A stretch of DNA of 63,837 nt, counting the filler, from Candidatus Rokuibacteriota bacterium (GTDB lineage Bacteria; JAUVQV01; DATDCY01): assembly GCA_031406795.1 (NCBI GenBank). It is 7 parts of 7 records of this genome, joined end to end, with 100 filler letters (N's around TTAATTAATTAA, not from the genome) between each part and the next. Parts side by side here need not be neighbours in the genome. Positions count along the whole stretch, not along the records: positions 1 to 16,711 come from JANOHV010000086.1; 6 more parts are not named here. The stretch is one strand, 5' to 3'. Positions 1-15,791 of this stretch are shown here, piece by piece (position 1 is the stretch's first letter; each line of letters begins with the position of its first letter). Made by a program: the position numbers and the translations under genes. Below the pieces are notes generated by a model. That model did not search any database and had not been told where the DNA came from. It saw only the letters and a program-made list of their open reading frames with translations.

Positions 1-1
1 C

Positions 2-43
2 GCCGCGATCCTGAGCAACCTCCAGGCGAAGGGCTCAGCGTGA
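2..43 (+). pseudogene. fcl: GDP-L-fucose synthase N-terminal fragment (AAILSNLQAKG)
   Basis: Translation matches the Fcl segment after HRGLVG (xAILxNLQxKG) and stops after a few codons; the same segment recurs at 4613-4657. Confidence 0.55.
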
Positions 44-270
44 TGATTCGAACGAACCGCCTCGACGCCGGACAGATCGAGGTCATGGACCCGGAGATGG
101 TGCAGGTTCTGCGCCGGAAGACACCCGCCGAGCGCCTGCAAAATTCCTTCGCGCTCTGGGAGTCAGCGTGCTCCATGCTCCAGGCCCACCTCTCGCACAC
201 TCATCGCAATTGGACGCCGGAGCACGTCCGGCGCGAAGTCGCTCACAGGATGTCGCATGGGGCCGTCTGA
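43..270 (+). CDS. Small TPAERL-motif protein, putative antitoxin partner of a nucleotidyltransferase
   Basis: 75 aa with RKTPAERL motif; overlaps the downstream NTase-like ORF. Confidence 0.6.
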   Translation: MIRTNRLDAGQIEVMDPEMVQVLRRKTPAERLQNSFALWESACSMLQAHLSHTHRNWTPEHVRREVAHRMSHGAV

Positions 271-454
271 ACTTTTCGAAATCAAAAAGATGGAATACTA
301 CCGTGAAGGCGGGTCCGAGAAGCACCTTCGGGACATCACGGGGATCCTCCTGACGACGGGCGCCGATGTCGAGCGCCCCTACATCGAGCACTGGGCGCAG
401 CAGCTCGGCCTGGGCGAGATCTGGGATGCCATCGAAAAGAAGTTGCGATCGTGA
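257..454 (+). pseudogene. Internally deleted nucleotidyltransferase (DUF6036-like)
   Basis: N-terminal MGPSEL joined directly to the typical C-terminal KMEYYREGGSEKHLRDI...YIEHWAQQLGL; catalytic GG...DxD core absent. Confidence 0.55.
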
Positions 455-460
455 CCACGA

Positions 461-521
461 TGAACCCGCCACGAGGCTCGGTTCTCGACAATCCCCTGCG
501 ATGGGGACCGGCGGTAGCGAT
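461..521 (+). repeat. Hairpin+ops linker repeat, copy 1
   Basis: TGAAC at 461, TCCCCTGCGATGGGGA hairpin, GGCGGTAG at 510-517. Confidence 0.85.
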
Positions 522-598
522 GCCCCGGAGACTTCGAGCGGCAGGGCTATGCACTTGATTCAACTGCTCCCTGAGGTCGCGCAGGATTGCCTCGGCAC

Positions 599-682
599 GT
601 CATTGCGAGGAGCGAAGCGACGCGGCAATCTGACGAAATCGGCTTTCGTTTCGTGAGATTGCTTCGCTTCGCTCGCAATGAC
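599..682. repeat. REP-like palindromic element
   Basis: GTCATTGCGAGGAGCGAAGCGACGCGGCAATCT ... AGATTGCTTCGCTTCGCTCGCAATGAC inverted arms. Confidence 0.8.
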
Positions 683-720
683 TTTGTGAGGTTGAGTCAA
701 GTGCACAGCCCTATTGAGCG

Positions 721-1032
721 ATGAAGCCCGCCCCCGTGAAGCGCCTCCCCCGTTTTGTCGCCCCCGCCTTCTGGGACCGGCGGTTCGGAGCCCTCTCCTG
801 GGAGCGCGACCGCGATTTCATCGTCCGCCGGCTGTTGGAGGCCGGGGACTGGCGCAGCGTCACCTGGCTGCGGGCCGCCCTGGGCGACGGTGGCCTGCGC
901 GCCTGGCTGACGGACCCCGCCCGGCGCCCCGGAGGATTGTCGCGCCGGCAGATCCGCTTCTGGGAAATCGTGCTCGACGTCCCACTCGGGCGCCTGCTCG
1001 AGGATGCGCGGAGGTCGCCATGGCCGCACTGA
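721..1032 (+). CDS. DUF6922-like antitoxin
   Basis: FWD...FIVRRLLEAGDW...RFW pattern; overlaps the AbiEii gene. Confidence 0.7.
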   Translation: MKPAPVKRLPRFVAPAFWDRRFGALSWERDRDFIVRRLLEAGDWRSVTWLRAALGDGGLRAWLTDPARRPGGLSRRQIRFWEIVLDVPLGRLLEDARRSPWPH

Positions 1033-1670
1033 TCGGCCCCGGGCGCTGGCACCCGGAGGTCATGACAAGAGCGCAAGCCGGGGTTCTCGCCCGGCTCGGC
1101 CCGGTTGCCGCCGCCGAGGGTTTCTACCTGGCGGGCGGTACGGCGCTTGCGCTGCACTACGGACATCGGCGCTCGGTCGACCTGGATTGGTTTTCGCCTC
1201 ACCCCATCGAGGATCCCCTGGGCCTGGCGGCCCGCATACGGGACAGCGGCATCAGGCTCGAAGTCTCGAGCGTCTCCCGGGGCACCCTGCACGCCCGGGT
1301 CAATCGCGTGCGAGTGAGCTTTCTGGAATTCAGGTATCCGCTGCTGACGAGGACGATGAGCTGGCCCGAGGCCCGGTGCCCCATTGCAGGCATTCGGGAC
1401 ATCGCCTGCATGAAACTCGCCGCGATCGCCCAGCGCGGGTCCCGGAAGGATTTCGTCGACCTCTGGGCATTGCTCGCCCACCGGCGGCGCCTGCCCGCCA
1501 TGCTGACCGACTACCGAAAGAAGTTCTCGGTGAACGACATCTCGTCCGTCATTTATGGTCTGTGCTACTTCGACGACGCCGAGGCCGAGCCGCTGCCGAT
1601 CATGCTTGCCCCGGCAGGGTGGCCGGAGATCCGCGCCGGCGTCACCGCGGCGTTGAAGAAGATTCTGTGA
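1020..1670 (+). CDS. AbiEii/AbiGii-family nucleotidyltransferase toxin (type IV TA)
   Basis: FYLAGGTALALHYGHRRSVDLDWF and MKLAAIAQRGSRKDFVDL motifs; RBS GGAGG before ATG 1020. Confidence 0.85.
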   Translation: MAALIGPGRWHPEVMTRAQAGVLARLGPVAAAEGFYLAGGTALALHYGHRRSVDLDWFSPHPIEDPLGLAARIRDSGIRLEVSSVSRGTLHARVNRVRVSFLEFRYPLLTRTMSWPEARCPIAGIRDIACMKLAAIAQRGSRKDFVDLWALLAHRRRLPAMLTDYRKKFSVNDISSVIYGLCYFDDAEAEPLPIMLAPAGWPEIRAGVTAALKKIL

Positions 1671-1822
1671 TTACCGTCCGGGGCGATGACCGGATGGAGG
1701 TAGTCGTTGTCGGAGGGTCGGTGAGGGACCTCAAAGGTGCCTTGCCGAAGCCGAGGAAGGTGTTGTCGCTCGAGGAGATGGACCTCGCGATCGCGAAGGG
1801 AGCCAGGAGAGCCGGACGGTGA
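1667..1822 (+). pseudogene. 5'-truncated AbrB/MazE-type (VapB) antitoxin
   Basis: SVRDLKGALPKPRKVLSLEEMDLAIAKG is a typical C-terminus; DNA-binding N-terminus missing; GTGA overlap with vapC. Confidence 0.6.
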
Positions 1823-2223
1823 TCGCGCTGGACACGAACGTGCTGCTGCGCTACATCGTTCGGGACGACGCCCGCCAAGCCGCCGCTGCAACGAAGCTCA
1901 TCGAATCGTCCTGCAAACCGGACTCCCCGGGAGTGATCGCACTCGTGGTGATGTGCGAGTTGGTCTGGGTTCTCGAGAGCGGTTACCGCTATCGGCGAGA
2001 ACAGGTCGCGGGGATTCTGAGGAAGGTTCTTGGTTCGCAGGACCTGCGGGTGGAGCGTTCGGACCTGGCTTGGCAGGCCCCCAATCGCTACGAGGTCGGC
2101 CCGGCGGACTATGCCGATTACGTGATCGGGCTGTGCGGAAGAGAGGAATCGGCGGACGCCACCTGGACGTTCGATCGTCGTGCAGCGGGCAGCCCCCTGT
2201 TCAAGGTGCTTTCCGGGAACTAA
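1819..2223 (+). CDS. vapC: PIN-domain VapC toxin
   Basis: IALDTNVLLRY...ELVWVL...DYADYVI...TFDR PIN motifs. Confidence 0.9.
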   Translation: MIALDTNVLLRYIVRDDARQAAAATKLIESSCKPDSPGVIALVVMCELVWVLESGYRYRREQVAGILRKVLGSQDLRVERSDLAWQAPNRYEVGPADYADYVIGLCGREESADATWTFDRRAAGSPLFKVLSGN

Positions 2224-2348
2224 CAGATGCTGACAAGGAAACAGCTTTGAAGACAATCGCCAGGATTGTGGAATGTGACGCAGACCGTCAGCTAACCCAT
2301 GAATAAAGTTTATAATTTATCAACAATGCCGTATCCTTGTTCGCAGAG

Positions 2349-2410
2349 TGAACGCATCCTTAGGACGCGCTTGCCGGCAGTCCCCTGCGATGGGGCCCGG
2401 CGGTAGCTTG
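2349..2410 (+). repeat. Hairpin+ops linker repeat, copy 2
   Basis: TGAAC 2349; CCGGCAGTCCCCTGCGATGGGGCCCGG; GGCGGTAG at 2399-2406. Confidence 0.9.
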
Positions 2411-2466
2411 TGAGCAACCGGGAATTCCTCTTTGAGACCGAGCGCCCCGAATACGTCTTCCTCATG
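2410..2466 (+). pseudogene. fcl: fcl internal fragment (FLFETERPEYVFL)
   Basis: Matches Fcl FFxxERPEYVFLAAA; repeated at 4424, 9092 and 9886. Confidence 0.7.
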
Positions 2467-2483
2467 GGGGCGGGTAAGCCACC

Positions 2484-2870
2484 GTGGACGTAGACAAACA
2501 GATTGATTACTGGCGCAGGAGCGCGCTCGAAGACCTCGATGCAGCGCAAGCCTTGGTCAAGCTGGGCAAGTACCGTCATGGGCTCTTCCTGGCCCACCTG
2601 TCCCTCGAGAAAATGCTCAAAGCCCATGTCTGTCGAATGACTGGCGATCTCCCGCCACGGATTCACCGATTGACCGCACTCGCCGAAAAGGCAGGCCTGA
2701 AACCCACCCGCCGCAGATCGATCTTCCTCGGTCACTTCGACCTCTACCAGTTGGAAGGGCGTTATCCGGATCCTTCTGCGGTGCCGGTTCCGGCCGCAGA
2801 ATGCCTGCGGGAAATGAAAAAGGCGGAGGATGTGCTGAAATGGTTGACAGAAAGATTGCTCAAACCATAA
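2484..2870 (+). CDS. HEPN-domain protein (HEPN/MNT TA)
   Basis: DLDAAQAL...FLAHLSLEKMLKA...RIHRL...RYP. Confidence 0.85.
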   Translation: MDVDKQIDYWRRSALEDLDAAQALVKLGKYRHGLFLAHLSLEKMLKAHVCRMTGDLPPRIHRLTALAEKAGLKPTRRRSIFLGHFDLYQLEGRYPDPSAVPVPAAECLREMKKAEDVLKWLTERLLKP

Positions 2871-3166
2871 GACATTTTATCCGTGAGGCCAAATCTGCGG
2901 GAATCCACGTGGAAAGCGTATTGCTCTACGGGTCGTACGCCAAAGGGACTGCCGGAGTCGATAGCGACATCGATTTGGCGGTCATCGCGCCTGAATTCGA
3001 TCGCAAGGGAAGCCGTGCGTGGGTACGAAAGCTCTGGGCCCTGCGCGCAATAACTGACAACCGCATAGAACCGCTCGCGGTTGGCCGTACCCAGTGGCTT
3101 GAGGACCAGGGATCGCCGATCATAGAGATTGTGCGGCGTGAAGGGATTTCGATCGCTTTGCGATGA
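2840..3166 (+). CDS. Minimal nucleotidyltransferase (MNT)
   Basis: LYGSYAKG...DSDIDLAVI motif; overlaps the HEPN gene. Confidence 0.85.
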   Translation: MVDRKIAQTIRHFIREAKSAGIHVESVLLYGSYAKGTAGVDSDIDLAVIAPEFDRKGSRAWVRKLWALRAITDNRIEPLAVGRTQWLEDQGSPIIEIVRREGISIALR

Positions 3167-3180
3167 AAAGGAAGAAGGCT

Positions 3181-3267
3181 ATGTGCAACATAAACGCCAA
3201 AATCTACATCGCCGGCCACCGCGGCCTCGTCGGCGGCGCCCACCACCGCCTCCTGGTCGGGGCCTGA
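3181..3267 (+). pseudogene. fcl: fcl N-terminal fragment (MCNINAKIYIAGHRGLVGGA)
   Basis: Characteristic Fcl start KIYIAGHRGLVG followed by a stop after 28 codons. Confidence 0.8.
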
Positions 3268-3348
3268 GCAGGCCAAGGGCGATCTCGAGGTTCTCATATG
3301 AGCAGGTCGATCCAGTTTTCAAGACACTCACGCCGAAGAATGCGGCTC

Positions 3349-3451
3349 TATGATATCGTGGAACAAGATATTGAAAATTGTGTTTGTTGAAGAAGCGGGT
3401 TCGGTTACGGTTGCTACAACCTACCCGGTGAAAAAGGAGCGGAGCCAATGA
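3349..3451 (+). pseudogene. DUF4258-like toxin C-terminal remnant
   Basis: KILKIVFVEEAGSVTVATTYP; ATGA overlap with the DUF2283 gene. Confidence 0.5.
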
Positions 3452-3666
3452 AAATCCGTTACGACGACCAAGTCGACACCGCATACATTCAGCTTTCCGA
3501 TCTTGTCCCTTCCGGCGTCATAGAGCTTGCCGCGGAGGCCAACCTCGATGTTACCGAGGATGGGGCTGTGGTAGGAATCGAAATACTGGATGCCTCGAAA
3601 AAATTCCCTCTTGAAACTCTTTTTCGGTGCGAGTATGAGCCTGAGATGTTTCTGAGCCATCATTGA
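3448..3666 (+). CDS. DUF2283-family protein
   Basis: MKIRYDDQVDTAYIQL...DG.VVGIEILDASK. Confidence 0.85.
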   Translation: MKIRYDDQVDTAYIQLSDLVPSGVIELAAEANLDVTEDGAVVGIEILDASKKFPLETLFRCEYEPEMFLSHH

Positions 3667-3680
3667 CTACCGACGCTCTG

Positions 3681-3742
3681 TGAACGCACCTTCTGTACCC
3701 GCTTTCCGGCAGTCCCCTGCGATGGGGACCGGCGGTAGCCTG
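3681..3742 (+). repeat. Hairpin+ops linker repeat, copy 3
   Basis: TGAAC 3681; GGCGGTAGCCTG at 3731-3742 fits GGCGGTAGnnTG exactly. Confidence 0.9.
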
Positions 3743-3778
3743 TTGAAGCGCCGCATCTCCGTCGTCGGCCTCGGCCAT
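3743..3778 (+). pseudogene. UDP-sugar dehydrogenase (Ugd/WbpO/TviB-type) N-terminal fragment
   Basis: TTG-KRRISVVGLG is the start of the Rossmann VVGLGYVG motif; first 27 nt identical at 7001. Confidence 0.65.
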
Positions 3779-3806
3779 GACCGCACCGGTGAAGTCGCGT
3801 CTGCCA

Positions 3807-4132
3807 ATGGCTGACACTTTAGAAAAGATCCAAGATCACTTCATCAGCGAAAGAGTCTTCTATTCCCGCCACGCGAAGTCAGAGATGCAACTCGAGGAGT
3901 TTGGAGAAATCTTGGACCGCGAGGTGGCTGAGGCCGTGGCTTCGGGGAGGATTATCGAGGATTACCCAGATGACTCTCCCTACCCGAGCTGCCTCATTTT
4001 CGGGACGACGGACGCAGGTCGTCCGATCCACATGGTATGGCCCATAGTGCGGAAGAGAATTTTACGATTATTGTGACGGTGTACCATCCCGATCCGCAAC
4101 GCTGGATCGGTTACGAAAGGAGGCTCCCATGA
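3807..4132 (+). pseudogene. DUF4258-family putative toxin, frameshifted near 4039
   Basis: IIEDYPDD.PYPSCLIFG...RPIH in one frame; IVTVYHPDPQRW..YERR continues in another. Confidence 0.75.
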
Positions 4133-4365
4133 AGTGCGTGGTGTGCCACAGTCCAGATATCGTCGAGAAGCGCGTCGATGAGGAGATCCGGATCGGCGAC
4201 AACATCTTCCTCGTGGACGTCGAAGCCCTCTCGTGCAAAAACTGTGGAGAGAGTTACTTCGACAGGAAAGCGATGCGGAAGATTGAAGAGGCGCGAACCA
4301 GACTCAGGGAACATTCAGTGACTTTCCAGGAGGTTGGCAAGGTTTTTCGAGCGTGTGTCGCTTGA
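4129..4365 (+). CDS. YgiT-type (MqsA-like) zinc-finger antitoxin
   Basis: MKCVVC...CKNCGESYF. Confidence 0.85.
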   Translation: MKCVVCHSPDIVEKRVDEEIRIGDNIFLVDVEALSCKNCGESYFDRKAMRKIEEARTRLREHSVTFQEVGKVFRACVA

Positions 4366-4424
4366 ACACGCCTTCTGAACGTACTTTCCGGCTGTCCCCT
4401 GCGATGGGGACCGGCGGTAGCTCG
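4363..4424 (+). repeat. Hairpin+ops linker repeat, copy 4
   Basis: TGAAC 4363 supplies the upstream stop codon; GGCGGTAG at 4413-4420. Confidence 0.9.
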
Positions 4425-4660
4425 TGAGCAATCGGAAATTCTTCTTCGAGCCCGAGCGCCCCGAATACCTCTTCCCCCCCCCGGCCAAGGTCGGCGGCAC
4501 CCACGCCAACAACACCTGGCCGGCGGAGAGATTGTTCCCGATTGACCAGCTCTACAACGTCGCCGTGAACGCCCGCACCACGCCGCTGGAACTGTTCACG
4601 CTGCTGCGCGACGGTCTCGCCGGCCCCGCGAGCTTGCGCAACTTGCAGGCGAAGAGGTAG
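4424..4660 (+). pseudogene. Mosaic of fcl internal, WbpP-like epimerase and fcl N-terminal fragments
   Basis: FFEPERPEYLF..AKVGGTHANNTWPAE (Fcl), DQLYNVAVNARTT.LELF.LLRDGL (WbpP-like), GLAGPASLRNLQAK (Fcl). Confidence 0.7.
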
Positions 4661-4692
4661 GCCGTCATATTTAATACATATTGTAAGTGCAG

Positions 4693-4728
4693 TTGACAAT
4701 GTGTACCGAAATGTATAACTTGTTGATA
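4693..4728 (+). promoter_or_regulatory. sigma70-like promoter overlapping an IHF-like site; probable leaderless start
   Basis: TTGACA at 4693; TATAAC/TAACTT at 4714-4721; TAACTTGTTGATA fits YAAnnnnTTGATW; ATG at 4728. Confidence 0.5.
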
Positions 4729-5923
4729 TGATAGCGAGAAGTTCAACGGCAACGCTGCACCGATTGGCCCGCGGCTTTCCTATCGTCGCGATCACCGGCC
4801 CGCGACAGTCCGGCAAGACGACCCTCGGCGGCAGTCCTTCCCCGACAAATCCTACCTGTCGCTGGAAGACCCGGACATTCTCGCTCTGGCCGAATCCGAC
4901 CCGCGCGGTCTCCTGGCAGCCCACCCGCTCGGCGCTATCATCGACGAGGCGCAGCGCGCCCCGCAGTTCTTCTCGTATCTGCAGACCCGCGTCGATGAGA
5001 AAGGCGCACCCGGGGCGTGGATCCTCACTGGTTCGCAGCAATTCGGGTTGCTCTCGGGGATAACCCAGTCTCTGGCGGGCCGGGTGGGTCTGCTCCAACT
5101 CCTCCCTTTCTCGCTCTCCGAGCTGCGCGATGCGGTCCGTCCTCTTGCCACGCTCGACGAGTATTTAGTGCAGGGCTTCTACCCCCCGCTGTACGACCGC
5201 CTGGTTTCCTCCAGCGACTGGTTCGCCGCCTACATCGCCACTTATGTCGAGCGCGATCTGCGCCAGCTGATCAATGTGCGCGACCTCTCTGCCTTCCAGA
5301 GATTCGTGAAGATGTGCGCCGCCCGCACCGGGCAATTGCTCAACCTTTCCGCTCTTGCGGCGGACTGCGGCATCAGCCACAACACCGCCGCCGCCTGGAT
5401 CTCGGTGCTCGAGGCAAGCTACATCATTCACCTGTTGCGCCCGCACTATCGCAACTTCAACAAGCGCATCGTGAAGACCCCCAAGCTCTACTTCTGCGAC
5501 GTGGGGCTGGCCGCCTGGCTGCTGGGGGTGCGGGAACCGGAGCAGGCTCGTTTTCACGCGCAGCGAGGGGCGCTCTTCGAGACGCTCGTGGTCAACGAGT
5601 TCCTGAAGCAGAGACTGAACGACGGTCAGCCGACAAACCTGTTCTTCTGGCGCGACAGCAAGGGGCTGGAGATCGACCTGCTGCTCGAGAACGGCGACGA
5701 CCTGACGCCGGTCGAGATCAAGTCGGGGCAGACCATCGTCCCGGATTTCTTCACGGGACTGAAGCAGTGGCTGGCGCTCTCGGGAACCCCCGTTCACCCC
5801 GCCTGGCTGATCTACGGCGGCGAACGCGAGCACCGGCGTGATTCCGTCGCGATCATCCCGTGGAACTTTCTTCCTGCCCAATTGCCCATGATACCTTCCC
5901 GCGAGCTCCGCGAACTTGCGTAA
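4728..5923 (+). pseudogene. AAA_14/DUF4143 ATPase with a frameshift near 4827
   Basis: GPRQSGKTT in one frame; IIDEAQ, TGS, KTPKLYF.D.GL and EIDL...EIKS in another. Confidence 0.85.
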
Positions 5924-5930
5924 CTTACCG

Positions 5931-5943
5931 TAATTACTTGATA
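5931..5943. promoter_or_regulatory. IHF consensus site
   Basis: TAATTACTTGATA is the reverse complement of WATCAAnnnnTTR; 46 nt before the repeat TGAAC, as at 6892. Confidence 0.55.
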
Positions 5944-5976
5944 ATTATTCTGTGAACCAATATTGTTTTTACACCG

Positions 5977-6039
5977 TGAACGCAGCCACCGCTGTCCGTT
6001 TTCCGGCAGTCCCCGGTGATGGGGACCGGCGGTAGCTTG
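5977..6039 (+). repeat. Hairpin+ops linker repeat, copy 5
   Basis: CCGGCAGTCCCCGGTGATGGGGACCGG; GGCGGTAG at 6028-6035. Confidence 0.9.
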
Positions 6040-6287
6040 TGAATATTCCGAACCCGGCGCATCCCCGGAGGCAATCAGCGACACAACCCGCCCCGGTGAC
6101 GCACCGCCCGCCGGGAAGCGACCGAGCTATCCGTGGGTCACGCGCCATCGAAAGCTCGCGCGCCGCTCGCGAGAGCGTGGAACTGCAGATGACGCCCGCG
6201 GAACGGCTGACGCTCGCGCTGGAGCTCTCCGACCTGTGCGAGGAACTGGCTGCCGCGGGACGATCCACGCTTGAGGAACAGGCGTGA
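6039..6287 (+). CDS. Small TPAERL-motif protein, putative antitoxin (start uncertain)
   Basis: MTPAERLTLALELSDL motif; GTGA overlap with the NTase gene. Confidence 0.5.
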   Translation: MNIPNPAHPRRQSATQPAPVTHRPPGSDRAIRGSRAIESSRAARESVELQMTPAERLTLALELSDLCEELAAAGRSTLEEQA

Positions 6288-6810
6288 CCCGCGCAGAAGT
6301 TCTGCGGACCGTCGCTGCCGACCTCAATGAGCTGGTCGAGGCAGGGACGCTGGGACGCTGGGACGCTGGGCGTTGTGCGGCGGGCTCGCGCTCGCTGTCT
6401 GGGGCGCGCCGCGGGCGACGCTGGACATCGACGTCCTCGCCGACCTTGCGGAAGGCCGTCCCGCCGCCTGGGTCGCCGAAGCGCTCGTTCTCAAGGGGTG
6501 GACCCTCATCGATCACGCCCGCCACCCCGGCGACCCGGTTCCGGAGCTGCTGCGGATGACGCGCGGCGGTGTCGGCGTCGATATCCTGATCGCCCATCGC
6601 ACCTGGGAAGCCGCCATGCTTGAGGAAGCCTCGATCGTGCCCTGGCAGGGGGTCGGCGTCCCGAGCGTGCGGGTCGAGGCGCTGGCTGCGATGAAGCTCC
6701 GCGCCGGAGGCCCGCAGGACCTCGTGGATGCCGGCCGTCTGGAGGCATTGCCGGATTTCGACCGCGGGCGCTTCACCGCATGGAAGAAGAGACTCCGGGT
6801 GCGGGATTAG
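6284..6810 (+). pseudogene. Nucleotidyltransferase frameshifted by an extra 8-bp repeat unit
   Basis: GGLALAVWGAPRATLDIDVL and MKLRAGGPQDLVD motifs; (GGGACGCT)x3 at 6344-6367. Confidence 0.75.
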
Positions 6811-6816
6811 CAAGCA

Positions 6817-6867
6817 ATGGACAAGAACGCCAAGATTTCCATCGCCGGCCACCGCGGCCTCTTTTGA
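6817..6867 (+). pseudogene. fcl: fcl N-terminal fragment (MDKNAKISIAGHRGL)
   Basis: Fcl start motif followed by a stop. Confidence 0.8.
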
Positions 6868-6891
6868 TCCGCTAACTCGCCTAACTTGTCG

Positions 6892-6934
6892 TAATTCCTT
6901 GATTATTCTCCTATGATACGGTATTCCAATTGCA
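6892..6934 (+). promoter_or_regulatory. IHF site plus sigma54-like -24/-12 promoter
   Basis: TAATTCCTTGATT at 6892-6904; GG(6920-6921)-N10-GC within CGGTATTCCAATTGCA. Confidence 0.5.
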
Positions 6935-6937
6935 CCG

Positions 6938-7000
6938 TGAACGCAGCCACCGCTGTCCGTTTTCCGGCTGTTCCCTGCGATGGGGACCGGCCGTAGCGTG
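6938..7000 (+). repeat. Hairpin+ops linker repeat, copy 6
   Basis: GGCCGTAGCGTG at 6989-7000 has one mismatch to GGCGGTAGCGTG. Confidence 0.9.
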
Positions 7001-7028
7001 TTGAAGCGCCGCATCTCCGTCGTCGGCT
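7001..7028 (+). pseudogene. UDP-sugar dehydrogenase N-terminal fragment (LKRRISVVG)
   Basis: First 27 nt identical to 3743-3769. Confidence 0.6.
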
Positions 7029-7091
7029 TCAACGGTCAGCCCTTTCTCAACATCTCGAACACCTGGATGCAGAAACTTATCGGAGTTCGCG

Positions 7092-7364
7092 ATGCGGATT
7101 GAGTGGGATCCGAACAAGGCGCGCACGAATCATCTGAAGCATGGAGTATCCTTCGAGGAAGCGGCTACTGCGCTGAGGGATTGCATGTCTAAGACGGGCG
7201 CCGATCCGGACCATTCCATCGGCGAGCATCGTTATATCACTTTTGGTTTATCGGAGAAGGGAAGACTCCTCGTGATCTCCCATACTGACGAGGGCGATCG
7301 AATCAGGATCATCAGTGCCCGAACGGCGGGCAGGGGGGAGCGGAAAATCTATGAAGAAGGATAG
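7092..7364 (+). CDS. brnT: BrnT-family toxin
   Basis: EWDPNKARTNHLKHGVSFEEA...IRIISAR. Confidence 0.9.
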   Translation: MRIEWDPNKARTNHLKHGVSFEEAATALRDCMSKTGADPDHSIGEHRYITFGLSEKGRLLVISHTDEGDRIRIISARTAGRGERKIYEEG

Positions 7365-7611
7365 CATTTCCAAGGTTGCGGAACAGCGCGCTCAGTATAA
7401 GTTGTCGGATTTTTCCAGTCCGATGGTGCGGGGGAAGTATGCCAAGCGTATCCAGGAGTCGTCGAACGTCGTCGTTTTAAAGCCCGAAGTTGCCGAAGCC
7501 TTCCCGAACGCGGATGCAGTCAACAAGGCGCTGCTCTCCCTTATCAAGATTGCAAGAACCTGCACTCACGCTGATGAACACCATGGCCGGCGAGCGAAAG
7601 CGCGCGGGTGA
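7351..7611 (+). CDS. BrnA-like antitoxin
   Basis: RGKYA...VVLKPEVAEAFPNADAVNKAL; stop codon lies in a partial linker repeat (GTGAACGCAGCCACC, 7608-7622). Confidence 0.75.
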   Translation: MKKDSISKVAEQRAQYKLSDFSSPMVRGKYAKRIQESSNVVVLKPEVAEAFPNADAVNKALLSLIKIARTCTHADEHHGRRAKARG

Positions 7612-7622
7612 ACGCAGCCACC

Positions 7623-7735
7623 CTAGCCGCCGATGAGGGTAATGTTGTTTCCCATGAGGAAGCAAAAAAGAGGCTGCTTGCCAATTGAAGCTCGAATGGA
7701 CCGAACCTGCGGTTCGAGACCCCTCGACATCTCGC
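7623..7735 (+). pseudogene. Remnant antitoxin C-terminus plus RelE/ParE toxin N-terminus
   Basis: ADEGNVVSHEEAKKRL* overlaps TTG-KLEWTEPAVRD. Confidence 0.55.
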
Positions 7736-7817
7736 GCCTGTACGAGATCCAGACAATATTCAGTGCATCTTGAAAAAAGTCATAGACAATTTTCGACTAC
7801 CATTGAATAATTCAGGC

Positions 7818-9038
7818 ATGATAACCCGAGACCTCCAGGGTGTCCTCACGGCCGACCTCGACCGCTACGACAAGATGTCGTTTGTCGCCGGCCCCCGCCA
7901 GACCGGCAAGACGACGCTCGCAAGGATGCTGATGGGGAAGCGCCAGGCCTCGCGCTACTGGAACTACGACATTCCGGAGGACCGCCTGCTGCTCACGCGC
8001 AAGCCATCGTTCTACAAGGAGGTCGATCGCCCCCGGGGTGTCAAGCCGCTGGTGGTTTTCGACGAACTGCACAAGTATCGATTGTGGAAATCCTACCTCA
8101 AGGGTGCCTTCGACGACGCGCACGCCGACTTCTCGTTCCTCGTCACCGGCAGCGGACGCCTCGACCTCTACCGCAAGGGAGGCGACAGCCTCGCCGGGCG
8201 CTATTTCCTTCACCGGCTCTTCCCCCTGACGATCGGCGAGCTTGCCACGACCCCGCGGCGTTCCCTCGAGGATTTCCTCGGCGGCCCCGATGAACTTCCG
8301 GCAGCCGGGGCCGCATCCCGCGATGCCTGGCGGGCCCTCGAGATCCTGAGCGGCTTCCCCGAGCCCTTCAACACCGGCGAAGAGTCTTTTTATCGCCGCT
8401 GGGCCCAGACCTACCGCAAGCAGGTGATCCTCGAAGACATCCGGGACCTGACCCACGTCCACCAGGTGAGCCGGATCGAAACCCTCGCCGTCCTGTTACG
8501 CGAGCGGGTTGGCGGACTGCTCTCCACGAACGCGCTGCGCGAGGACATGAAGACCGCCTTCGACACCGTCAAGAACTGGCTCGAGATCCTGCAGAACTTC
8601 TACCTCGTTTTTATGCTGACCCCATGGCACGGCTCCCTGGTGCGCAGCTTGCGCAAGGAGCCGAAGCTTTATTTCTATGACTGGGCAGCTGTCCCCGACC
8701 CGGCGGCGCGTTTCGAAAACCTCGTCGCGGTACACCTGCTCCGAGCCGTGACCGCCTGGACCGAGGCCGGCGCCGGCGAGTTCTCGCTGCACTTCGTTCG
8801 CGACCGCGAGAAAAGCGAGGTGGACTTCCTACTGGTCCGCGGCAAGAAACCGCTGGTCCTCGTCGAGGCCAAGCTGTCGGAGACCGAACCCGCCCCGGCG
8901 CTCATCAAGATGAAGAAGGCGCTCGGGATACCGGCGGTCCAGCTGGTGAACGTGCCGGGCATCTCCCGGAAGGCCGCCGGGAAAGGCGAGGGGATCCTGG
9001 TCGCCTCGGCGGATCGTTGGCTGGCGGGACTGCCATGA
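7818..9038 (+). CDS. AAA_14/DUF4143 ATPase
   Basis: GPRQTGKTT, FDELHK, TGS, KEPKLYFYD, EVDF...VEAK; TAGACA-N17-AATAAT just upstream. Confidence 0.9.
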   Translation: MITRDLQGVLTADLDRYDKMSFVAGPRQTGKTTLARMLMGKRQASRYWNYDIPEDRLLLTRKPSFYKEVDRPRGVKPLVVFDELHKYRLWKSYLKGAFDDAHADFSFLVTGSGRLDLYRKGGDSLAGRYFLHRLFPLTIGELATTPRRSLEDFLGGPDELPAAGAASRDAWRALEILSGFPEPFNTGEESFYRRWAQTYRKQVILEDIRDLTHVHQVSRIETLAVLLRERVGGLLSTNALREDMKTAFDTVKNWLEILQNFYLVFMLTPWHGSLVRSLRKEPKLYFYDWAAVPDPAARFENLVAVHLLRAVTAWTEAGAGEFSLHFVRDREKSEVDFLLVRGKKPLVLVEAKLSETEPAPALIKMKKALGIPAVQLVNVPGISRKAAGKGEGILVASADRWLAGLP

Positions 9039-9091
9039 ACGAGGCAATGATGGCTGGTACCTTGCAGAAGGAAACCGCCCTGGCGATCTTC

Positions 9092-9170
9092 GTGAGCAAC
9101 CGGGAATTCTTCTTCGAGACCGGGCGCCCCGAATACCTCTTCCCCGCCGCGGCCAAGCTCGGCGGCATCC
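9092..9170 (+). pseudogene. fcl: fcl internal fragment
   Basis: FFETGRPEYLFPAAAKLGGI. Confidence 0.75.
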
Positions 9171-9190
9171 GTTCCTGGAGGGGCTGAGCG

Positions 9191-9532
9191 ATGAAGATCG
9201 TTCGAGACCGGATTGATCTTGCAGAACTGAAAGACATGGCCGAACGGGGATTCGGGACTCTCGACAAGGCGGTGGTTGATATCGAAGCCGGCATCATGGC
9301 AATCGATGCCGAGCTTCACTCGGATCAGGAGGCGCTTCTGCTGGAAAACGGTTCGGCGCAGCGCGATCTGTGGGGAATCAACCTCTACCCGGACATCGCC
9401 GGCGAGGACTGGCTGGAATTCGACTCGATGATCAACCTGCGTCCAGGGTCCGGCAACAGGAGCCGGGGAGTCGATGACCCGGCCGTGCGAGAGAGGATCC
9501 GGGATATCGTGATGCGCCTGGTGCAGCGATGA
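9191..9532 (+). CDS. DUF5674-like protein
   Basis: KAVVDIE...ELHSDQE...GS.Q.DLWGINLYP...EFDSMINLRP..GNRSRGV. Confidence 0.75.
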   Translation: MKIVRDRIDLAELKDMAERGFGTLDKAVVDIEAGIMAIDAELHSDQEALLLENGSAQRDLWGINLYPDIAGEDWLEFDSMINLRPGSGNRSRGVDDPAVRERIRDIVMRLVQR

Positions 9533-9864
9533 CCGTCATGCACCGGGAGCTCGCCGCCGGCCGCTGGTTCGGCCTGCCGCTGGTCGAGCAGATGGCCAAC
9601 ATCGGCAGCGAGATCGAGCGGACGATTTCCTGGCGCGGCCGAAACGCGAAAAACAGCGCGGCGGCTTTCGAGCGGGGACTTGAGCTGCTCGACCTGACGA
9701 TCGCCGACCCCCGCCACCGCCGGCGCCTTCGGGAACTGGTGCGCGTGCGCGAAGCACTCGCCGATCACTTCGTTTTCGATAACAGCTTCGGTTCGACGGA
9801 CGAATCATGGCGCCGTTATTTCAACGCCTTCACCTATGCATCAGCCATCCGGAGGGGACGCTGA
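9529..9864 (+). CDS. Conserved hypothetical helical protein coupled to the DUF5674-like gene
   Basis: ATGA overlap; EQMANIGSEIER...FERGLELLDLT. Confidence 0.7.
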   Translation: MTVMHRELAAGRWFGLPLVEQMANIGSEIERTISWRGRNAKNSAAAFERGLELLDLTIADPRHRRRLRELVRVREALADHFVFDNSFGSTDESWRRYFNAFTYASAIRRGR

Positions 9865-9885
9865 TATTCATTGGCTCGAACCTGC

Positions 9886-9991
9886 CGGGAATTCTTCTTC
9901 GAGCCCGAGCGCCCCGATTCTTCTTCCCCGCCGCGGCCAAGCTCGGCGGCATCCACGCCAGCAACACCTGCCCGGCGGAGAGATCGTTCCC
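9886..9991 (+). pseudogene. fcl: fcl internal fragment (frameshifted)
   Basis: FFEPERP / FFPAAAKLGGIHASNTCPAE. Confidence 0.75.
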
Positions 9992-10046
9992 GTATGCCCA
10001 CTGAAGTCGACACGGTAATCTGCAAGCTCCAGACTGTCGTCCGCCC

Positions 10047-10685
10047 ATGATTGAATCAATGACAGCGGTCGGGCGCATCGGCTTCTTGTTCCTCTGCCTT
10101 CTCCTTCCGTTGAAGGATGCCGGCGCTGCGGGGGAGCCTGCGGGAACGTTCGCCGTCGTGGAGGGCGAAGTCGTTGTCGTCAAGCCCGGCTTCGACAACC
10201 GCGCGCGCGCCCGGACCGGTGACCCGGTCCTGGTCGGTGACATTCTAAGAACCGGGGGCAATGGCAAGACGAAGATCCTGCTGGCCGACGATTCCCTAGT
10301 CTTCATCCCCTCCCGGTCGGTTTTGCGGATCAACCAGTACGCATTCGATCCCGCGGAAAGCCGGCGGAGCGCGAGGATACAACTGCTGGAAGGGCGGGCA
10401 CGGTTCATCGTCGGCCGGCAGCGGTTCCGGAATTCCCTGTTCAGTGTGGAGACGGAGCACGCGGTTATCGGCGCCGGCCCCGCCGATTTTTCCCTTGCTG
10501 TGGCTGATGGGGAGTCGACCGTCGCGGTCATCGACGGCAGCGTCAGCGTGAAGAACATTTCCAACCTGATCATCGGGAGCATGAACGTTTCGACAAATCA
10601 GCAGTCAGTGATCGCCAGGAAGTCGCCACCCACCCAACCGGCGGTGATAACCTCAGGGCAAAGAAAGGAATACCGGAAGTTCTAG
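10047..10685 (+). CDS. Secreted FecR-domain protein
   Basis: Signal peptide; GD.LRTG, L.DDS, LLEG.ARF and V.V.DG.V.V pattern. Confidence 0.75.
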   Translation: MIESMTAVGRIGFLFLCLLLPLKDAGAAGEPAGTFAVVEGEVVVVKPGFDNRARARTGDPVLVGDILRTGGNGKTKILLADDSLVFIPSRSVLRINQYAFDPAESRRSARIQLLEGRARFIVGRQRFRNSLFSVETEHAVIGAGPADFSLAVADGESTVAVIDGSVSVKNISNLIIGSMNVSTNQQSVIARKSPPTQPAVITSGQRKEYRKF

Positions 10686-10790
10686 CAAACTTCATTCACC
10701 ATTTGTGACGCTTGCGCTACCGAAGCAATAGTGTTACTGTCGATATGGATTTTGTCCAGCCAATCAACAACCAAGGCAAGGAGTCGAGGC

Positions 10791-11414
10791 ATGAAGAAGA
10801 TGGTGAGTACCTTCTGTTTTCTCGGAGTTCTCGCTCTGACGCTTTTCGGCGTCCCCCAGAGCATCCAGGCAGCCGCGTTGACCGAGGCACAGCAGGCAAC
10901 GTTGACTGCGGCCCTCACTGAACGGAAACCCTACGCGGATATCATCAGCCAGGCCATGGCCGCGGGCATGGGTGCCGAAGAGGTCGTCCAATTCCTGTGT
11001 AATAACTGCAACAGCGCCCCGGCCTGCGTGTCCGATGTCGTGTACGCCGCGATCACGGGCGGGATGGATGCGGAGCAGGCGATGTCCGGAGCGCTGCTGG
11101 CCGGTGCGGACTTGCAGACAGTCGTCAACGCCGGAAAGTCGGCGGGCGCCAGCGGCGAAGCGATTTCCGCGGCCGCCCTCAAGAACGGCTTCACGGCGAT
11201 CCAGATCAGCAACGCCGTCTCGGGTATTCTGGGCACCGGGGCGACCAGGACGACCGGTGGCGGTCGTATCGGCGGGGGATCAGGCTTTGGTGGGTCGATC
11301 GGCGGACCGACCGGCGGCGGGTCGACCGGCGGCGGTACTGATGGTGGTATCGGCGGTGGGTCAGCCAGCGGCGGTGCCGGTGGCAGCGTGCCTGCGACCC
11401 CTTCTAAACCCTAA
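10791..11414 (+). CDS. Secreted protein with Gly-rich C-terminus
   Basis: RBS AAGGAG, signal peptide, CNNC..C, poly-Gly tail. Confidence 0.65.
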   Translation: MKKMVSTFCFLGVLALTLFGVPQSIQAAALTEAQQATLTAALTERKPYADIISQAMAAGMGAEEVVQFLCNNCNSAPACVSDVVYAAITGGMDAEQAMSGALLAGADLQTVVNAGKSAGASGEAISAAALKNGFTAIQISNAVSGILGTGATRTTGGGRIGGGSGFGGSIGGPTGGGSTGGGTDGGIGGGSASGGAGGSVPATPSKP

Positions 11415-12614
11415 ATGGAGACGAAATCTATGATCCGTTCCTCCCACAAGGGGCTCCTGCTGCTCCTCGCATCGGCGCTGCTGCTTCCCGGGGTCTCGCA
11501 AGCCCAGGAAGCGCCGCAGGATTCCCTTGCGCCCCTCCAGATCGGCCCGGTGATCGTCCATCCCTCCTTGTCCCTGAGAGAGACCTACAGCGACAACGTC
11601 TTTTTCACGGCGAAAGACACCAAGGGCGATCTCATTACCGCAATATCGCCCGGCGTGACGTTTCAACTGCCGTTTCGCACGCACATCCTGACTCTCGGGA
11701 CGAGCGCGGAATTCGTGATCTACGCGGACAACTCGAGCCTGAACGTCTCGCCCTTCCAGGTCTTCGGCCTCGGCGAGTTCAACATCGGGGACCGGGTCAA
11801 GCTCAAGGTGGGCGACACCTACCAGAGGAACGAGGAGTCGCCGCTGGAGTCGCCGAACGGCACTTCAGATGTGTACACCGCCAACGCCGCGGCGCTTTCG
11901 GTGAAGTATGCCTTCGTGGACATCGCCCAGGCGCAGCTGGATTACACGCGGACGTCGCTGGACTACCTCGACAGCAGCTACCGGACGCGTGAGGAGGACC
12001 TGGTGTCGGCCTACCTCTATTATCGCGTCATGCCCAACACCTCGGCCTTTCTCGAGTACGACTTCAAGAACGTGGCGTACGACACATCGGACACATTCGA
12101 CAACGTCGTGCACACCGGACAGGTCGGCGCGACCTGGGAGTTCACGGAATACTCGAAGGGCACGGCCAAAATCGGCTTCCTGGCCAAGGAGTACTCGGAC
12201 GATTCCCTGAAGGACTACACTACCGTGACGGCATCCGTCGACCTGCGGCACCAGCTCACGCCCGACGCGTCGGTGCGGCTGCTCGGGAAGCGGGACGTCA
12301 ACGAGGGCAAGTACGTCGACGCCCGGTACTACACCACGACCGGCTTGTTCGCCGATTTCACGTACCGCTTCCTGGAGCGGCTCTCCGGGGTGATCGAGGG
12401 CTCCTACGCGTTCGACGAGTACTCGAATGCCCGGGTCGGCTCGGTCATCGTCCGGGAGGACAAAACCGCCCACATCGGCCTCGGGGCGAAATACTCCTTC
12501 AACAGCTGGCTTGATTTCAGCCTCGGCTACGGTTATTCGAACCGCAACTCGAACATCGCGGATCTCGATGCCATCGTCAACACCGTCACCTTCAAGGTCA
12601 CGGCGGCTCTCTGA
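11415..12614 (+). CDS. EPS-associated outer-membrane beta-barrel protein
   Basis: Signal peptide, alternating aromatic beta-strands, YSDNVF and RNSN motifs; position before wza. Confidence 0.8.
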   Translation: METKSMIRSSHKGLLLLLASALLLPGVSQAQEAPQDSLAPLQIGPVIVHPSLSLRETYSDNVFFTAKDTKGDLITAISPGVTFQLPFRTHILTLGTSAEFVIYADNSSLNVSPFQVFGLGEFNIGDRVKLKVGDTYQRNEESPLESPNGTSDVYTANAAALSVKYAFVDIAQAQLDYTRTSLDYLDSSYRTREEDLVSAYLYYRVMPNTSAFLEYDFKNVAYDTSDTFDNVVHTGQVGATWEFTEYSKGTAKIGFLAKEYSDDSLKDYTTVTASVDLRHQLTPDASVRLLGKRDVNEGKYVDARYYTTTGLFADFTYRFLERLSGVIEGSYAFDEYSNARVGSVIVREDKTAHIGLGAKYSFNSWLDFSLGYGYSNRNSNIADLDAIVNTVTFKVTAAL

Positions 12615-12632
12615 TCCTGAGGGGTCTCCGAT

Positions 12633-12678
12633 AAGCCCCGGGGCGTGCAGCGTGCTACGCGCTCGCACCCCGGGGCTT
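12633..12678. repeat. Intergenic palindrome
   Basis: AAGCCCCGGGG ... CCCCGGGGCTT. Confidence 0.5.
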
Positions 12679-12716
12679 CATCCGTTGTCTCACGCAGGTA
12701 TGAGATCTTGACGAAG

Positions 12717-13535: not shown

Positions 13536-13561
13536 GCGCCTGTGAAGAGGAGAGGCTCTGC

Positions 13562-15775: not shown

Positions 15776-15791
15776 TCGACCGGCACCGGCG

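Follow-up and report, generated by a model that had tools for sequence, protein, structure and literature searches.

Sedentary chromosomal integrons are long, compact, same-strand arrays of cassettes that are rich in toxin–antitoxin (TA) genes, vary between strains and carry a repeated element at their junctions, the attC site, which is an imperfect inverted repeat of ~57–141 nt at the 3′ end of the cassette. Defence islands are also reportedly found, in work on the E. coli pan-genome, at integrase-free chromosomal hotspots. The locus considered here recalls both. It occupies positions 1–10004 of a 63,837-nt stretch of DNA (the window) from Candidatus Rokuibacteriota bacterium (GCA_031406795.1; G000, a draft genome of 4.1 Mb in 278 contigs), and consists of ~12 TA or defence modules, all on the same strand, with a small kit of repeats between them: a hairpin-bearing leader that contains an ops-like element, and pieces of the nucleotide-sugar gene fcl and of a UDP-sugar dehydrogenase gene. 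The layout is that of an integron, but no IntI or attC-like site was seen on the array contigs, the breakpoints of the array are ragged, many of its cassettes have their own promoter, and its junctions are pieces of housekeeping sugar genes. With the E. coli hotspots it shares variable TA or candidate defence cargo, a fixed chromosomal place and a lack of mobile-element hallmarks; unlike them, it sits in an operon head and leaves a trail of duplicated leaders and gene fragments.

Three further systems bear on the repeats themselves. The first is the RfaH/ops (JUMPStart) leader: the E. coli ops 12-mer, GGCGGTAGCGTG, is the recruitment site of RfaH, and the TG at its positions 11–12 is pause-inducing (PMC5995543, in the sections on which we draw). 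The array is similar in that its 5′ leader contains GGCGGTAGCnTG, a match to this 12-mer, in that the element heads sugar-nucleotide or exopolysaccharide (EPS) operons in relatives, and in that the genome encodes an RfaH-like NusG paralogue elsewhere. It is dissimilar in having 12 copies in one locus, as opposed to the single leader of a classical operon; the copies lie 1–6 nt before a start codon and include an extra upstream hairpin and a GTGAACGCA box, TA and defence genes stand behind them, the host is not enterobacterial, and dependence on the paralogue is putative. The second system comprises orphan cdiA-CT/cdiI and rhs modules, which, according to passages of PMC4927057, are displaced downstream and keep homology to the upstream gene; such orphan arrays are thought to arise as incoming modules displace older ones, and duplication with homologous recombination can re-deploy them. 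The present array likewise holds same-strand, two-gene modules, each behind a fragment of conserved upstream sequence. Its handle, however, is a promoter and leader with sugar-gene fragments and not the body of a polymorphic toxin, its cargo is intracellular TA and defence genes, there are no transposase or integrase genes between the modules, and no cdiA or rhs polymorphic toxin gene was found on the array contigs. The locus may thus be said, by analogy only, to work like an orphan cassette array without being a member of that class. The third is replacement at O-antigen and capsule clusters; in the O-antigen clusters, gene remnants mark the ends of recombination and a JUMPStart stands at the head of the cluster (PMC5399914, in the part dealing with these remnants). 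Gene remnants at recombination ends are common to both, but the inserts of the array are TA and defence modules, not sugar-pathway genes, and the head has been duplicated many times.

A literature search (supplements excluded) returned no paper on an array of TA or defence genes in which ops leaders are repeated, and section 11 of an RfaH survey (PMC7593976) reports TA systems among the neighbours of rfaH and does not describe ops-repeat arrays. The locus is best filed among TA and defence islands that grow by homology-driven cassette displacement, from which it is set apart by having as its repeated handle an entire RfaH-type ops leader, start codon included.

On balance it is probable, though far from assured, that this is a strain-variable island of type II and type IV TA and candidate defence modules within the head of an EPS sugar-nucleotide operon in an uncultured sediment bacterium, growing and being expressed as follows; we infer both the recombination mechanism and the dependence on RfaH. 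DNA comprising a leader and its cargo would recombine through homology in the leader or in an fcl piece on one side, while the other side would join illegitimately, at the level of microhomology. Older modules would be pushed downstream, unequal crossing-over or duplication would multiply composite junctions, and toxins and linkers would subsequently be eroded by deletion, with no site-specific recombinase involved. Each leader copy would supply its module with a promoter, an RfaH-like loading site and a ready-made start codon, and transcription could run on, resistant to termination, into the same-strand EPS export genes. It is conceivable, though doubtful, that the locus goes beyond this and constitutes an integrase-free cassette platform, in which the EPS head, from promoter to start codon, serves as a homology handle for the acquisition, duplication and reshuffling of modules among strains, and at the same time as a plug-in unit of expression at whose start codon an RfaH-like factor is loaded. 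Foreign genes poor in Shine–Dalgarno (SD) elements would then be both transcribed and translated, with read-through still reaching the EPS export genes.

Alignment of the leader copies gives the order sigma-70-like promoter, GTGAACGCA box, ~20 variable bases, and TTTCCGGCAGTCCCC-TGCGAT-GGGGACCGGCGGTAGCTTGTGAAC; there are three promoter types but a single conserved hairpin-ops part, and the 3′ end carries TTGTGAAC. One type B promoter (TTGATA-17-TATTGT) was also picked by a consensus promoter scan, which returned 8 promoter-like sites against 2.1 expected. On the first contig of the window (C96, positions 1–16711), copies of the core, made up of the hairpin and GGCGGTAG, begin at 493, 2382, 3714, 4396, 6011 and 6972. 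The 26-nt core CCCCTGCGATGGGGACCGGCGGTAGC has 11 genomic copies at ≤3 mismatches (six on C96, three on contig C26 and two on C21); its reversed control had 0 matches, and none of 40 other genomes searched contains the 26-mer. A covariance model built from 15 copies added a twelfth, degenerate copy on C179. The earlier note on this DNA had tied the linkers to the array, and the linkers do keep to the array contigs, the leader copies to these four, with no genome-wide scatter. Rfam searches of window 1–12000 and of L001, L002, L018, L022 and L023 gave no meaningful family, the one match being 16 nt of ssnA (E 0.75). The promoter B and 5′ box segment was also considered as decayed fcl codons 20–45, being colinear in length with the C26 fcl, but was set aside, as its global alignment to the C41 fcl was unconvincing. 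A second array-specific repeat of ~105 nt (…CCGGAAAACCCCGCTTCTCCTGAAATCCCTCTGCCTCGCC…GGCCAAGTGCCAGCTGG…) often lies just upstream of type A promoters; seven copies were aligned, at C26 (L001) 1465–1579, twice on the minus strand of C21 (L002) and four times on L018, with no Rfam match, no notable fold and no further genomic copy.

The likeness of GGCGGTAGCnTG to the E. coli 12-mer includes the TG at positions 11–12. The full pattern GGCGGTAGnnTG, as given in the sections of PMC5995543 used here, is present on the non-template strand in 8 of the 11 hairpin-ops copies of the genome, and the exceptions among all 12 copies are GGCCGTAG at 6972, GGCGGAGG on C179, TCG for nTG at 4396 and GAT at 493. 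Genome-wide, the 12-mer has 11 matches against 17 expected from base composition, and 8/11 are on array contigs. The RfaH-like NusG paralogue has 168 aa (C122 2291–2797; L016 1486–1992), has RfaH (TIGR01955) as its best NCBIfam match, and is kept at 60–85% identity in five of the six genomes compared from this thinly sampled class, four of which belong to the same genus. Its gene lies away from the EPS locus, beside cysS and a UbiA-type prenyltransferase, so that any action there would be in trans; the paralogue is conserved across the order.

A start codon follows GGCGGTAG by 1–6 nt in 15/15 leader copies, the offset being 3 nt in 10/15; since the copies are related, this position counts as one feature and not as 15 independent events. 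Cargo open reading frames that open at the leader codon include MNT genes of 127 and 130 aa, a nucleotidyltransferase (NTase) of 152 aa, the MNT of metagenome contig L022, and two genes for proteins of 82 aa, an Rv0078B-like antitoxin and the second ‘TPAERL’ protein. Elsewhere the codon opens in-frame stubs, either of fcl (MSNREFF...) or of the dehydrogenase (MKRRISVVG...). RfaH reportedly recruits 30S subunits to leaders without SD elements (PMC5995543, same sections), a role that an ops element abutting a start codon would appear to fit.

The same 3′ part of the leader could instead be a ribosome-binding region partly locked by the hairpin, with GGCGG as the SD sequence, exerting translational control and resembling ops by coincidence. 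GGCGG does lie 6 nt before the start codon, RNAalifold predicts an extended stem in which CCG pairs with the CGG of GGCGG, and the 12-mer is not enriched outside the array, where there are 3 matches against 17 expected genome-wide. We nonetheless hold this to be distinctly unlikely: all 10 specified ops positions match in the eight copies mentioned (PMC5995543, for the positions), the element heads polysaccharide operons in the related genome G001, on metagenome contig L023 and in sequencing run X5, and a conserved RfaH-like paralogue is kept in the genome. The two roles are in any case compatible, given the recruitment of 30S subunits by RfaH to SD-poor leaders described in the same source.

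The repeats might also be a selected regulatory device, the mark of an RfaH-like regulon in which every module would require an ops leader and start codon of its own, with no part in recombination and with the gene scraps as incidental debris. Promoter, ops element and start codon are all present, cargo genes open at the leader GTG, the same leader types precede different cargo, and RfaH-type genes lie beside TA systems in some genomes, as the section of PMC7593976 cited above indicates. Several leader copies, however, are truncated or without a promoter. Furthermore, the non-functional fcl and ugd stubs are as conserved between copies (87–97%) as the leader, so that conservation does not single out function, and the growth of the array and the differences in order between assemblies are left unexplained. 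As a complete account the regulon is unlikely; it overlaps the island reading and does not exclude it. The earlier note had taken the linkers to be homology arms, and here a distinction is needed, as the linkers do recur at the junctions but the main one also constitutes a full promoter, ops leader and start codon.

The remaining linkers are pieces of sugar genes. Pieces of the fcl start are found at 1–39, 3181, ~4613 and 6817 and of its interior at 2410, 4424, 9092 and 9886, their identity being borne out by comparison with the intact fcl of C41 and the 5′-truncated one of C26, and the dehydrogenase stub joins residues ~8–18 to residues ~47–56 of an intact TviB-like UDP-sugar dehydrogenase on C179 (2438–3733). 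Further pieces possibly derive from an epimerase. The hairpin-ops, fcl-start, fcl-internal and dehydrogenase-start repeats were all located at the positions that the earlier note had given for them. The intact fcl paralogue lies in the last ~1.1 kb of C41 (L003), starts 128 nt from the contig end and is 72% nucleotide-identical to the C26 copy; the repeated fcl-start pieces may have caused this contig break.

That the linkers come from the head of a polysaccharide operon, as had been proposed, is supported by relatives in which the head is simpler. In G001, of the same genus, a lone leader stands immediately ahead of an EPS-type MarR gene, behind which come rmlB, rmlC, rmlD, cysC, epimerases and ugd; one of these epimerases (Fcl) begins MNPTSRIYVAGHRGL. 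The G001 leader comprises a TTGACG...TATATT promoter, GTGAACGC, a hairpin (CCCCA/TGGGG) and GGCGGTAGCCTG. On L023 the leader stands ahead of a wecB-like start. In X5, a sediment metagenome from another study, the reading leader-GTG AAT ATG ACC...-YIAGH places an intact fcl start in frame (MNMTYRVYIAGH). On L018, a contig of another metagenome-assembled genome (MAG), one leader runs into MNPTSRI, identical to residues 1–7 of the G001 Fcl, and together with the X5 arrangement this points to leader-GTG AAC-fcl as the ancestral head, with cargo grafted onto its first codons. Taken as sequence evidence, G001, L023 and X5 support the junctions as copies of a polysaccharide-operon head. Within the class, the covariance model had no match in G003, G004 or G005, and a match in G002 (25.6 bits) looks like coding sequence and was set aside. 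MarR_EPS (TIGR04176) was not found in G000, and the head in G000 is not anchored to the gene order of G001.

The features of C96 are as follows, in window coordinates.

1-39, plus strand: fcl-start piece, codons ~20-30 (...AILSNLQAKG), cut by the contig start; matches L022 148-178 and 3133-3164
40-270, plus: Rv0078B-like (‘TPAERL’) antitoxin; Pfam PF18993, E 9.6e-8
257-454, plus: C-terminal remnant of the partner nucleotidyltransferase; by blastn, C96 281-463 against C26 486-668 at 83%, with C26 119-485 missing; no Pfam match
455-530, plus: leader copy 1, without promoter, 5′ part degenerate; hairpin and GGCGGTAGC at 493-518; covariance model 57.7 bits
590-691, no strand: palindromic element like a miniature inverted-repeat transposable element (MITE), outside the linker kit; inverted repeat
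721-1670, plus: DUF6922 (721-1032) and AbiEii nucleotidyltransferase (1020-1670); Pfam PF21956, PF08843; PADLOC AbiEii weak
1682-2223, plus: VapB-like remnant without N-terminus (1682-1822) and PIN VapC (1819-2223); PF01850; truncation from sequence and from a breakpoint common to L018
2291-2413, plus: type C promoter and leader copy 2; hairpin-ops 2382-2407; 86.3 bits; 91% identical to L018 1732-1854
2410-2461, plus: fcl-internal stub in frame with the leader GTG (MSNREF...); sequence comparison
2484-3166, plus: HEPN (2484-2870) and MNT nucleotidyltransferase (2801-3166); Pfam PF05168, PF01909; PADLOC PDC-S09 for the MNT
3181-3285, plus: fcl-start piece (MCNINAKIYIAGHRGLVGG...); matches the C41 fcl start
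3298-3666, plus: 30-aa DUF4258 fragment (3298-3390) and DUF2283 (3448-3666); PF14076 E 0.0014, below cut-off; PF10049 E 3e-13
3676-3751, plus: leader copy 3, without its own promoter; hairpin-ops 3714-3739; 88.1 bits
3743-3811, plus: TviB-like UDP-sugar dehydrogenase stub (MKRRISVVGLG joined to HDRTGEVA); tblastn to C179 2438-3733 and to the G001 ugd
3807-4365, plus: DUF4258 toxin-like gene and MqsA/YgiT-like antitoxin; Pfam; 94.6% identical to L022 1529-2098
4358-4433, plus: leader copy 4; hairpin-ops 4396-4421; 81.8 bits
4424-4660, plus: composite stub of fcl-internal, epimerase-like C-terminal and fcl-start-like (…ASLRNLQAKR) pieces; no Pfam match; epimerase label from translation only
4728-5923, plus: AAA_14/DUF4143 ATPase, frameshifted, with an AT-rich promoter-like stretch upstream; Pfam; PADLOC PDC-S01, E 1.6e-65
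5905-6048, plus: type B promoter (TTGATA-17-TATTGT) and leader copy 5; hairpin-ops 6011-6036; promoter-like site 5938-5966; 88 bits
6039-6810, plus: second ‘TPAERL’ protein (from the leader GTG) and frameshifted nucleotidyltransferase; AbiEii weak, E 6e-4
6817-7009, plus: composite junction of fcl-start (6817-6866), type B promoter and leader copy 6; GGCCGTAG variant 6972-6997; 85% identical to C26 2954-3138
7001-7102, plus: dehydrogenase-start stub (LKRRISVVG...); sequence comparison
7092-7611, plus: BrnT toxin (7092-7364) and putative BrnA (7351-7611); BrnT PF04365, E 3e-24; partner without profile match
7606-7810, plus: partial leader 5′ box (GGTGAACGCAGCCACC, ~7606-7624) and putative ParD/ParE-like remnants; sequence reading, no Pfam match
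7770-9038, plus: intact AAA_14/DUF4143 ATPase with its own promoter-like site 7783-7811; Pfam; PDC-S01; 86.8% to L022, 88.9% to C179
9090-9170, plus: leader tail (TTCGTGAGCAAC) and fcl-internal piece, without hairpin; repeat search, blastn
9191-9864, plus: DUF5674 gene (9191-9532) and unnamed partner (9529-9864); PF18924, E 2e-35; partner without match
9885-10009, plus: last fcl-internal and epimerase-like piece, array end; repeat search, blastn
10047-10685, plus: FecR-like; Pfam/NCBIfam
10731-11414, plus: unknown gene
11415-12614, plus: EpsL-like porin; Pfam/NCBIfam
12645-13535, plus: EpsE/Wza-like; Pfam/NCBIfam
13562-15775, plus: Wzc-like; Pfam/NCBIfam

Known-family small toxin and antitoxin genes are thus adjacent (AbiEii with DUF6922, PIN, HEPN with MNT, DUF4258 with an MqsA-like gene, BrnT and the Rv0078B-like gene, by Pfam), and several TA partners are truncated or without a profile match. 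The module identities read earlier from the sequence hold, by Pfam, for most genes; there is no profile support for the BrnA partner, the ParDE-like remnant, the second TPAERL protein (6039–6287) or the DUF5674 partner, and the ParDE, BrnA and epimerase labels are readings of the translation. Similarly, the proposed DUF4258–DUF2283 module retains a DUF2283 gene supported by Pfam, but its DUF4258 part is the 30-aa fragment below the cut-off. PADLOC assigned PDC-S01 to all three DUF4143 ATPases scanned and PDC-S09 to two MNTs, both being candidate defence systems, and AbiEii weakly; 17 of the 23 scanned proteins had no match.

Many modules are decayed or cut short. The frameshift in the second nucleotidyltransferase is an 8-nt tandem duplication (GGGACGCT) near 6344 that is absent in run X1 (depth 10.8 of 10.8) and present in X3; it reflects either polymorphism in the population or a discrepancy between assemblies. 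The NTase that accompanies the Rv0078B-like antitoxin is complete on C26 (L001) at 96–668 (190 aa) and carries different internal deletions on C96 (257–454) and L018 (96–563), the antitoxin being kept, which indicates independent erosion of the putative toxin. The MITE-like element at 590–691, between leader copy 1 and DUF6922, has arms CCTCGGCACGTCATTGCGAG and CTCGCAATGACTTTGTGAGG and also occurs on C1, C197, C27, C14 and C260; its words reach a depth of ~1000 in four metagenome runs with many different flanks, so that it is widespread across organisms.

The extent of ~10 kb that had been assigned to the array is correct for C96 (1–10004), but the array is larger and continues on C21, C26, C179 and a segment like L018. 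C21 (3.7 kb, reverse strand) and the first part of C26 (4.9 kb) overlap, and the two are built alike; the order on C21 is DUF4143 ATPase, leader, MNT-HEPN, DUF2442, second leader and Rv0078B-like antitoxin. C26 runs through NTase, MNT, DUF433, leader, MNT-HepT and a second leader, and then through an fcl stub, a composite of fcl-start, promoter B and leader, an NTase and the fcl without its 5′ end. A second, more decayed stretch lies on C179 at 8.4–12.5 kb, with two TPAERL–NTase pairs (76–77% identity), an ATPase (88.9%), the degenerate leader and a DUF5674 pair (93%). Related contigs also carry HepT with MNT, HicAB, and DUF4160 beside DUF2442. An IS21-like transposase on C179 (12251–13126, L042, minus strand), with an IstA-type N-terminus, interrupts the gene of the DUF5674 partner and continues beyond the end of the contig; no other transposase was seen near any array piece. 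On the same contig a 160-nt fragment of the DUF5674 partner (3823–3983) directly follows the TviB-like dehydrogenase, and TA debris is therefore also present within the sugar-gene cluster.

Comparison between assemblies bears directly on how the array has grown. Scans with a degenerate hairpin-ops pattern returned three loci among genome contigs and four among metagenome contigs; L018 was the only real relative in the first set, as L017 and L019 had nothing else in common by blastn, and L022 and L023 were real in the second, in which L020 and L021 had only 25–30 nt in common. L018 (5.4 kb) carries two leaders, a leader remnant and at least five modules, and L022 (4.2 kb) is likewise multi-module. 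The window is also partly present in five public runs (X1–X5) from two studies of freshwater or other sediment. Contig joints and depth were examined in Logan contigs of X1, X2, X3 and X5; X4 and X5 contain merely 0.10 and 0.09 of the sampled words, X5 was used for joints alone, and the depth gaps over some modules in the contig cover of X2 and X5 are no evidence of absence.

The earlier note had predicted that the linkers would recur across strains around different cargo and in different orders. This is borne out by L018, L022 and the joints in the runs, in which linkers and cargo stand in other orders and beside other neighbours, L018 and L022 sharing the linkers and part of the cargo. The DUF4258–MqsA pair (94.6%) follows a leader and ugd stub on C96 and a leader and MNT stub on L022, and is itself followed by a leader on the former and a DUF433 fragment on the latter. 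Ahead of the ATPase (86.8%) lies ParDE-like debris on C96 but an fcl-start stub on L022, while the DUF5674 partner lies behind DUF5674 on C96 and alone behind DUF2442 on L022. On L018, DUF6922–AbiEii has a different leader type ahead of it, two internal deletions, and an MNT fragment after it in place of the VapB′C of C96; the two-deletion variant also occurs in X1 and X3. The neighbours of the TPAERL–NTase pair differ among array contigs and assemblies. Joints of the L018 type were found at 837>1206 (X1 and X3), 1287>1514 (X3) and 4423>713 (X2 and X3), and C26-type and C179-type joints occur at depths similar to the C96 form. X5 adds the arrangements leader to fcl, leader to DUF4258 and ATPase end to fcl start, and one of its contigs joins 3234 to 3 and then reads on as fcl.

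Such a pattern might be produced if strains with one or a few modules each had been collapsed into chimeric contigs, with no long array in any cell. The assembly is fragmented into 278 contigs with ~3% contamination, its contigs start and end in linkers, the Logan contigs break there, and alternative joints co-occur within the same runs. An artefact of this kind is nevertheless quite improbable. Segments of linker, cargo and linker are each confirmed by Logan contigs, and single X1 contigs span two linkers and their cargo at 2349–3227, 3205–3731, 3710–4421 and 4393–5272 with 0–1 differences (0 for 2349–3227 and 3710–4421), which places multi-linker stretches on single molecules at k=31 resolution. 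The independent L018 and L022 are also multi-module, and the depths of alternative joints in X1 are similar (~8 against ~10).

The junctions themselves are irregular. Cargo common to assemblies begins ~10–20 nt ahead of the start codon and finishes ~10 nt past the stop, with ends that are not fixed. The fcl-start pieces stop at no fewer than five different positions, and the leader is cut variously, without its 5′ part at 493, as the 5′ box only at 7606, without the hairpin at C26 3790 and as 20 nt only at L018 5059; other joints fall within genes, where no more than a few bases are shared. No single fixed crossover position was found for the cassette boundaries, as linker and fcl pieces end at various points. 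Certain composite joints recur, namely leader to CGGGAATTC (four times), fcl-start to promoter B (three times) and fcl-internal to epimerase-like (twice), an indication that composites were duplicated. Terminator-like sites show no excess, with 5 found where 8.4 were expected.

A site-specific, integron-like system, with a recombinase off the assembled contigs acting on the hairpin, is highly improbable. The cargo boundaries are tight and cassette-like, most junctions have a conserved hairpin, and contig ends hide the far flanks of the array. The earlier note had called the array integron-like and had seen no integrase; the layout and the missing integrase stand, there being no tyrosine recombinase (PF00589) on C96, C26, C21 or C179 and all six genome matches lying elsewhere, but the ragged truncation points make a defined crossover site unlikely. 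The linker copies end at numerous positions, with breakpoints inside genes, several junctions have no hairpin and only fcl or ugd pieces, and the repeat search at junctions found only the hairpin with its 6-bp stem, with no longer local palindrome and no attC-like imperfect palindrome. The many truncation points and the lack of a tyrosine recombinase argue for homology-anchored and illegitimate recombination with duplication.

Several points weigh against the island reading and its mechanism. Every sequence is derived from metagenomes, and the X1 Logan contigs tile C96 between linkers and stop within them (overlaps of 5–30 nt), so that the order of segments on C96 rests on the original assembler alone. 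C96, C26, C21, C179 and the L018-like form could belong to one genome or to several co-existing strains, and the similar depths of the joints of array pieces (~8–11 in X1) do not decide between these. The one deletion-type joint, 9157>9973, between two fcl-internal copies corresponds to the C26 arrangement and need not be allelic to the C96 site. The assemblies compared captured no recombination event in progress, and decay shows no gradient along the array, contrary to a simple head-displacement model. On the side of expression, none of the five runs is recorded as RNA, the NusG paralogue scores 92.3 bits against an NCBIfam RfaH cut-off of 144.5, the GGCCGTAG copy carries G4C, a substitution that prevents the recruitment of RfaH in E. 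coli (PMC5995543, in the sections already cited), and the GGCGG six nt 5′ of the start codon could act as a weak SD sequence. The hairpin shows covariation in 0/10 pairs, none of which varies on both sides, and the folding energy of the two leader copies folded is unremarkable (z −1.9 and 0.0). Finally, three congeners share weakly similar EPS genes, with an EpsL-like protein 26–28% identical in two of the three (on other contigs in G001 and G002, and not found in G003), which leaves orthology of the loci unestablished.

C96 begins inside a repeat at window position 1, and window 16712–63837 consists of six further contigs, split by paired N runs and not contiguous with the array. Downstream of the array, the FecR-like, EpsL-like, EpsE/Wza-like and Wzc-like genes listed above (10047–15775) all score below the NCBIfam equivalog cut-offs, and the EpsE/Wza-like and Wzc-like genes on the same strand bear out the wza/wzc locus that the array had been said to abut.

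Should the locus prove to be merely a decaying junkyard at a recombination-prone site, it would still be a clear example of TA pile-up and erosion. If the island reading is true, a cassette array has been built without a dedicated recombinase, and its scraps of leader and gene form a readable record of events that could be used to find similar hotspots. It would also mean that a single locus can hold many tandem ops leaders, abutting start codons, in a non-enterobacterial host and before TA and defence genes, and the proposed recruitment of ribosomes by RfaH to SD-poor leaders would become testable in a compact natural construct. There may, moreover, be a regulatory link between surface polysaccharide, as phage receptor or barrier, and intracellular defence; were the locus indeed a plug-in platform, the TA and defence content of this bacterium would be tied to the expression of its surface polysaccharide under one specialised elongation factor.

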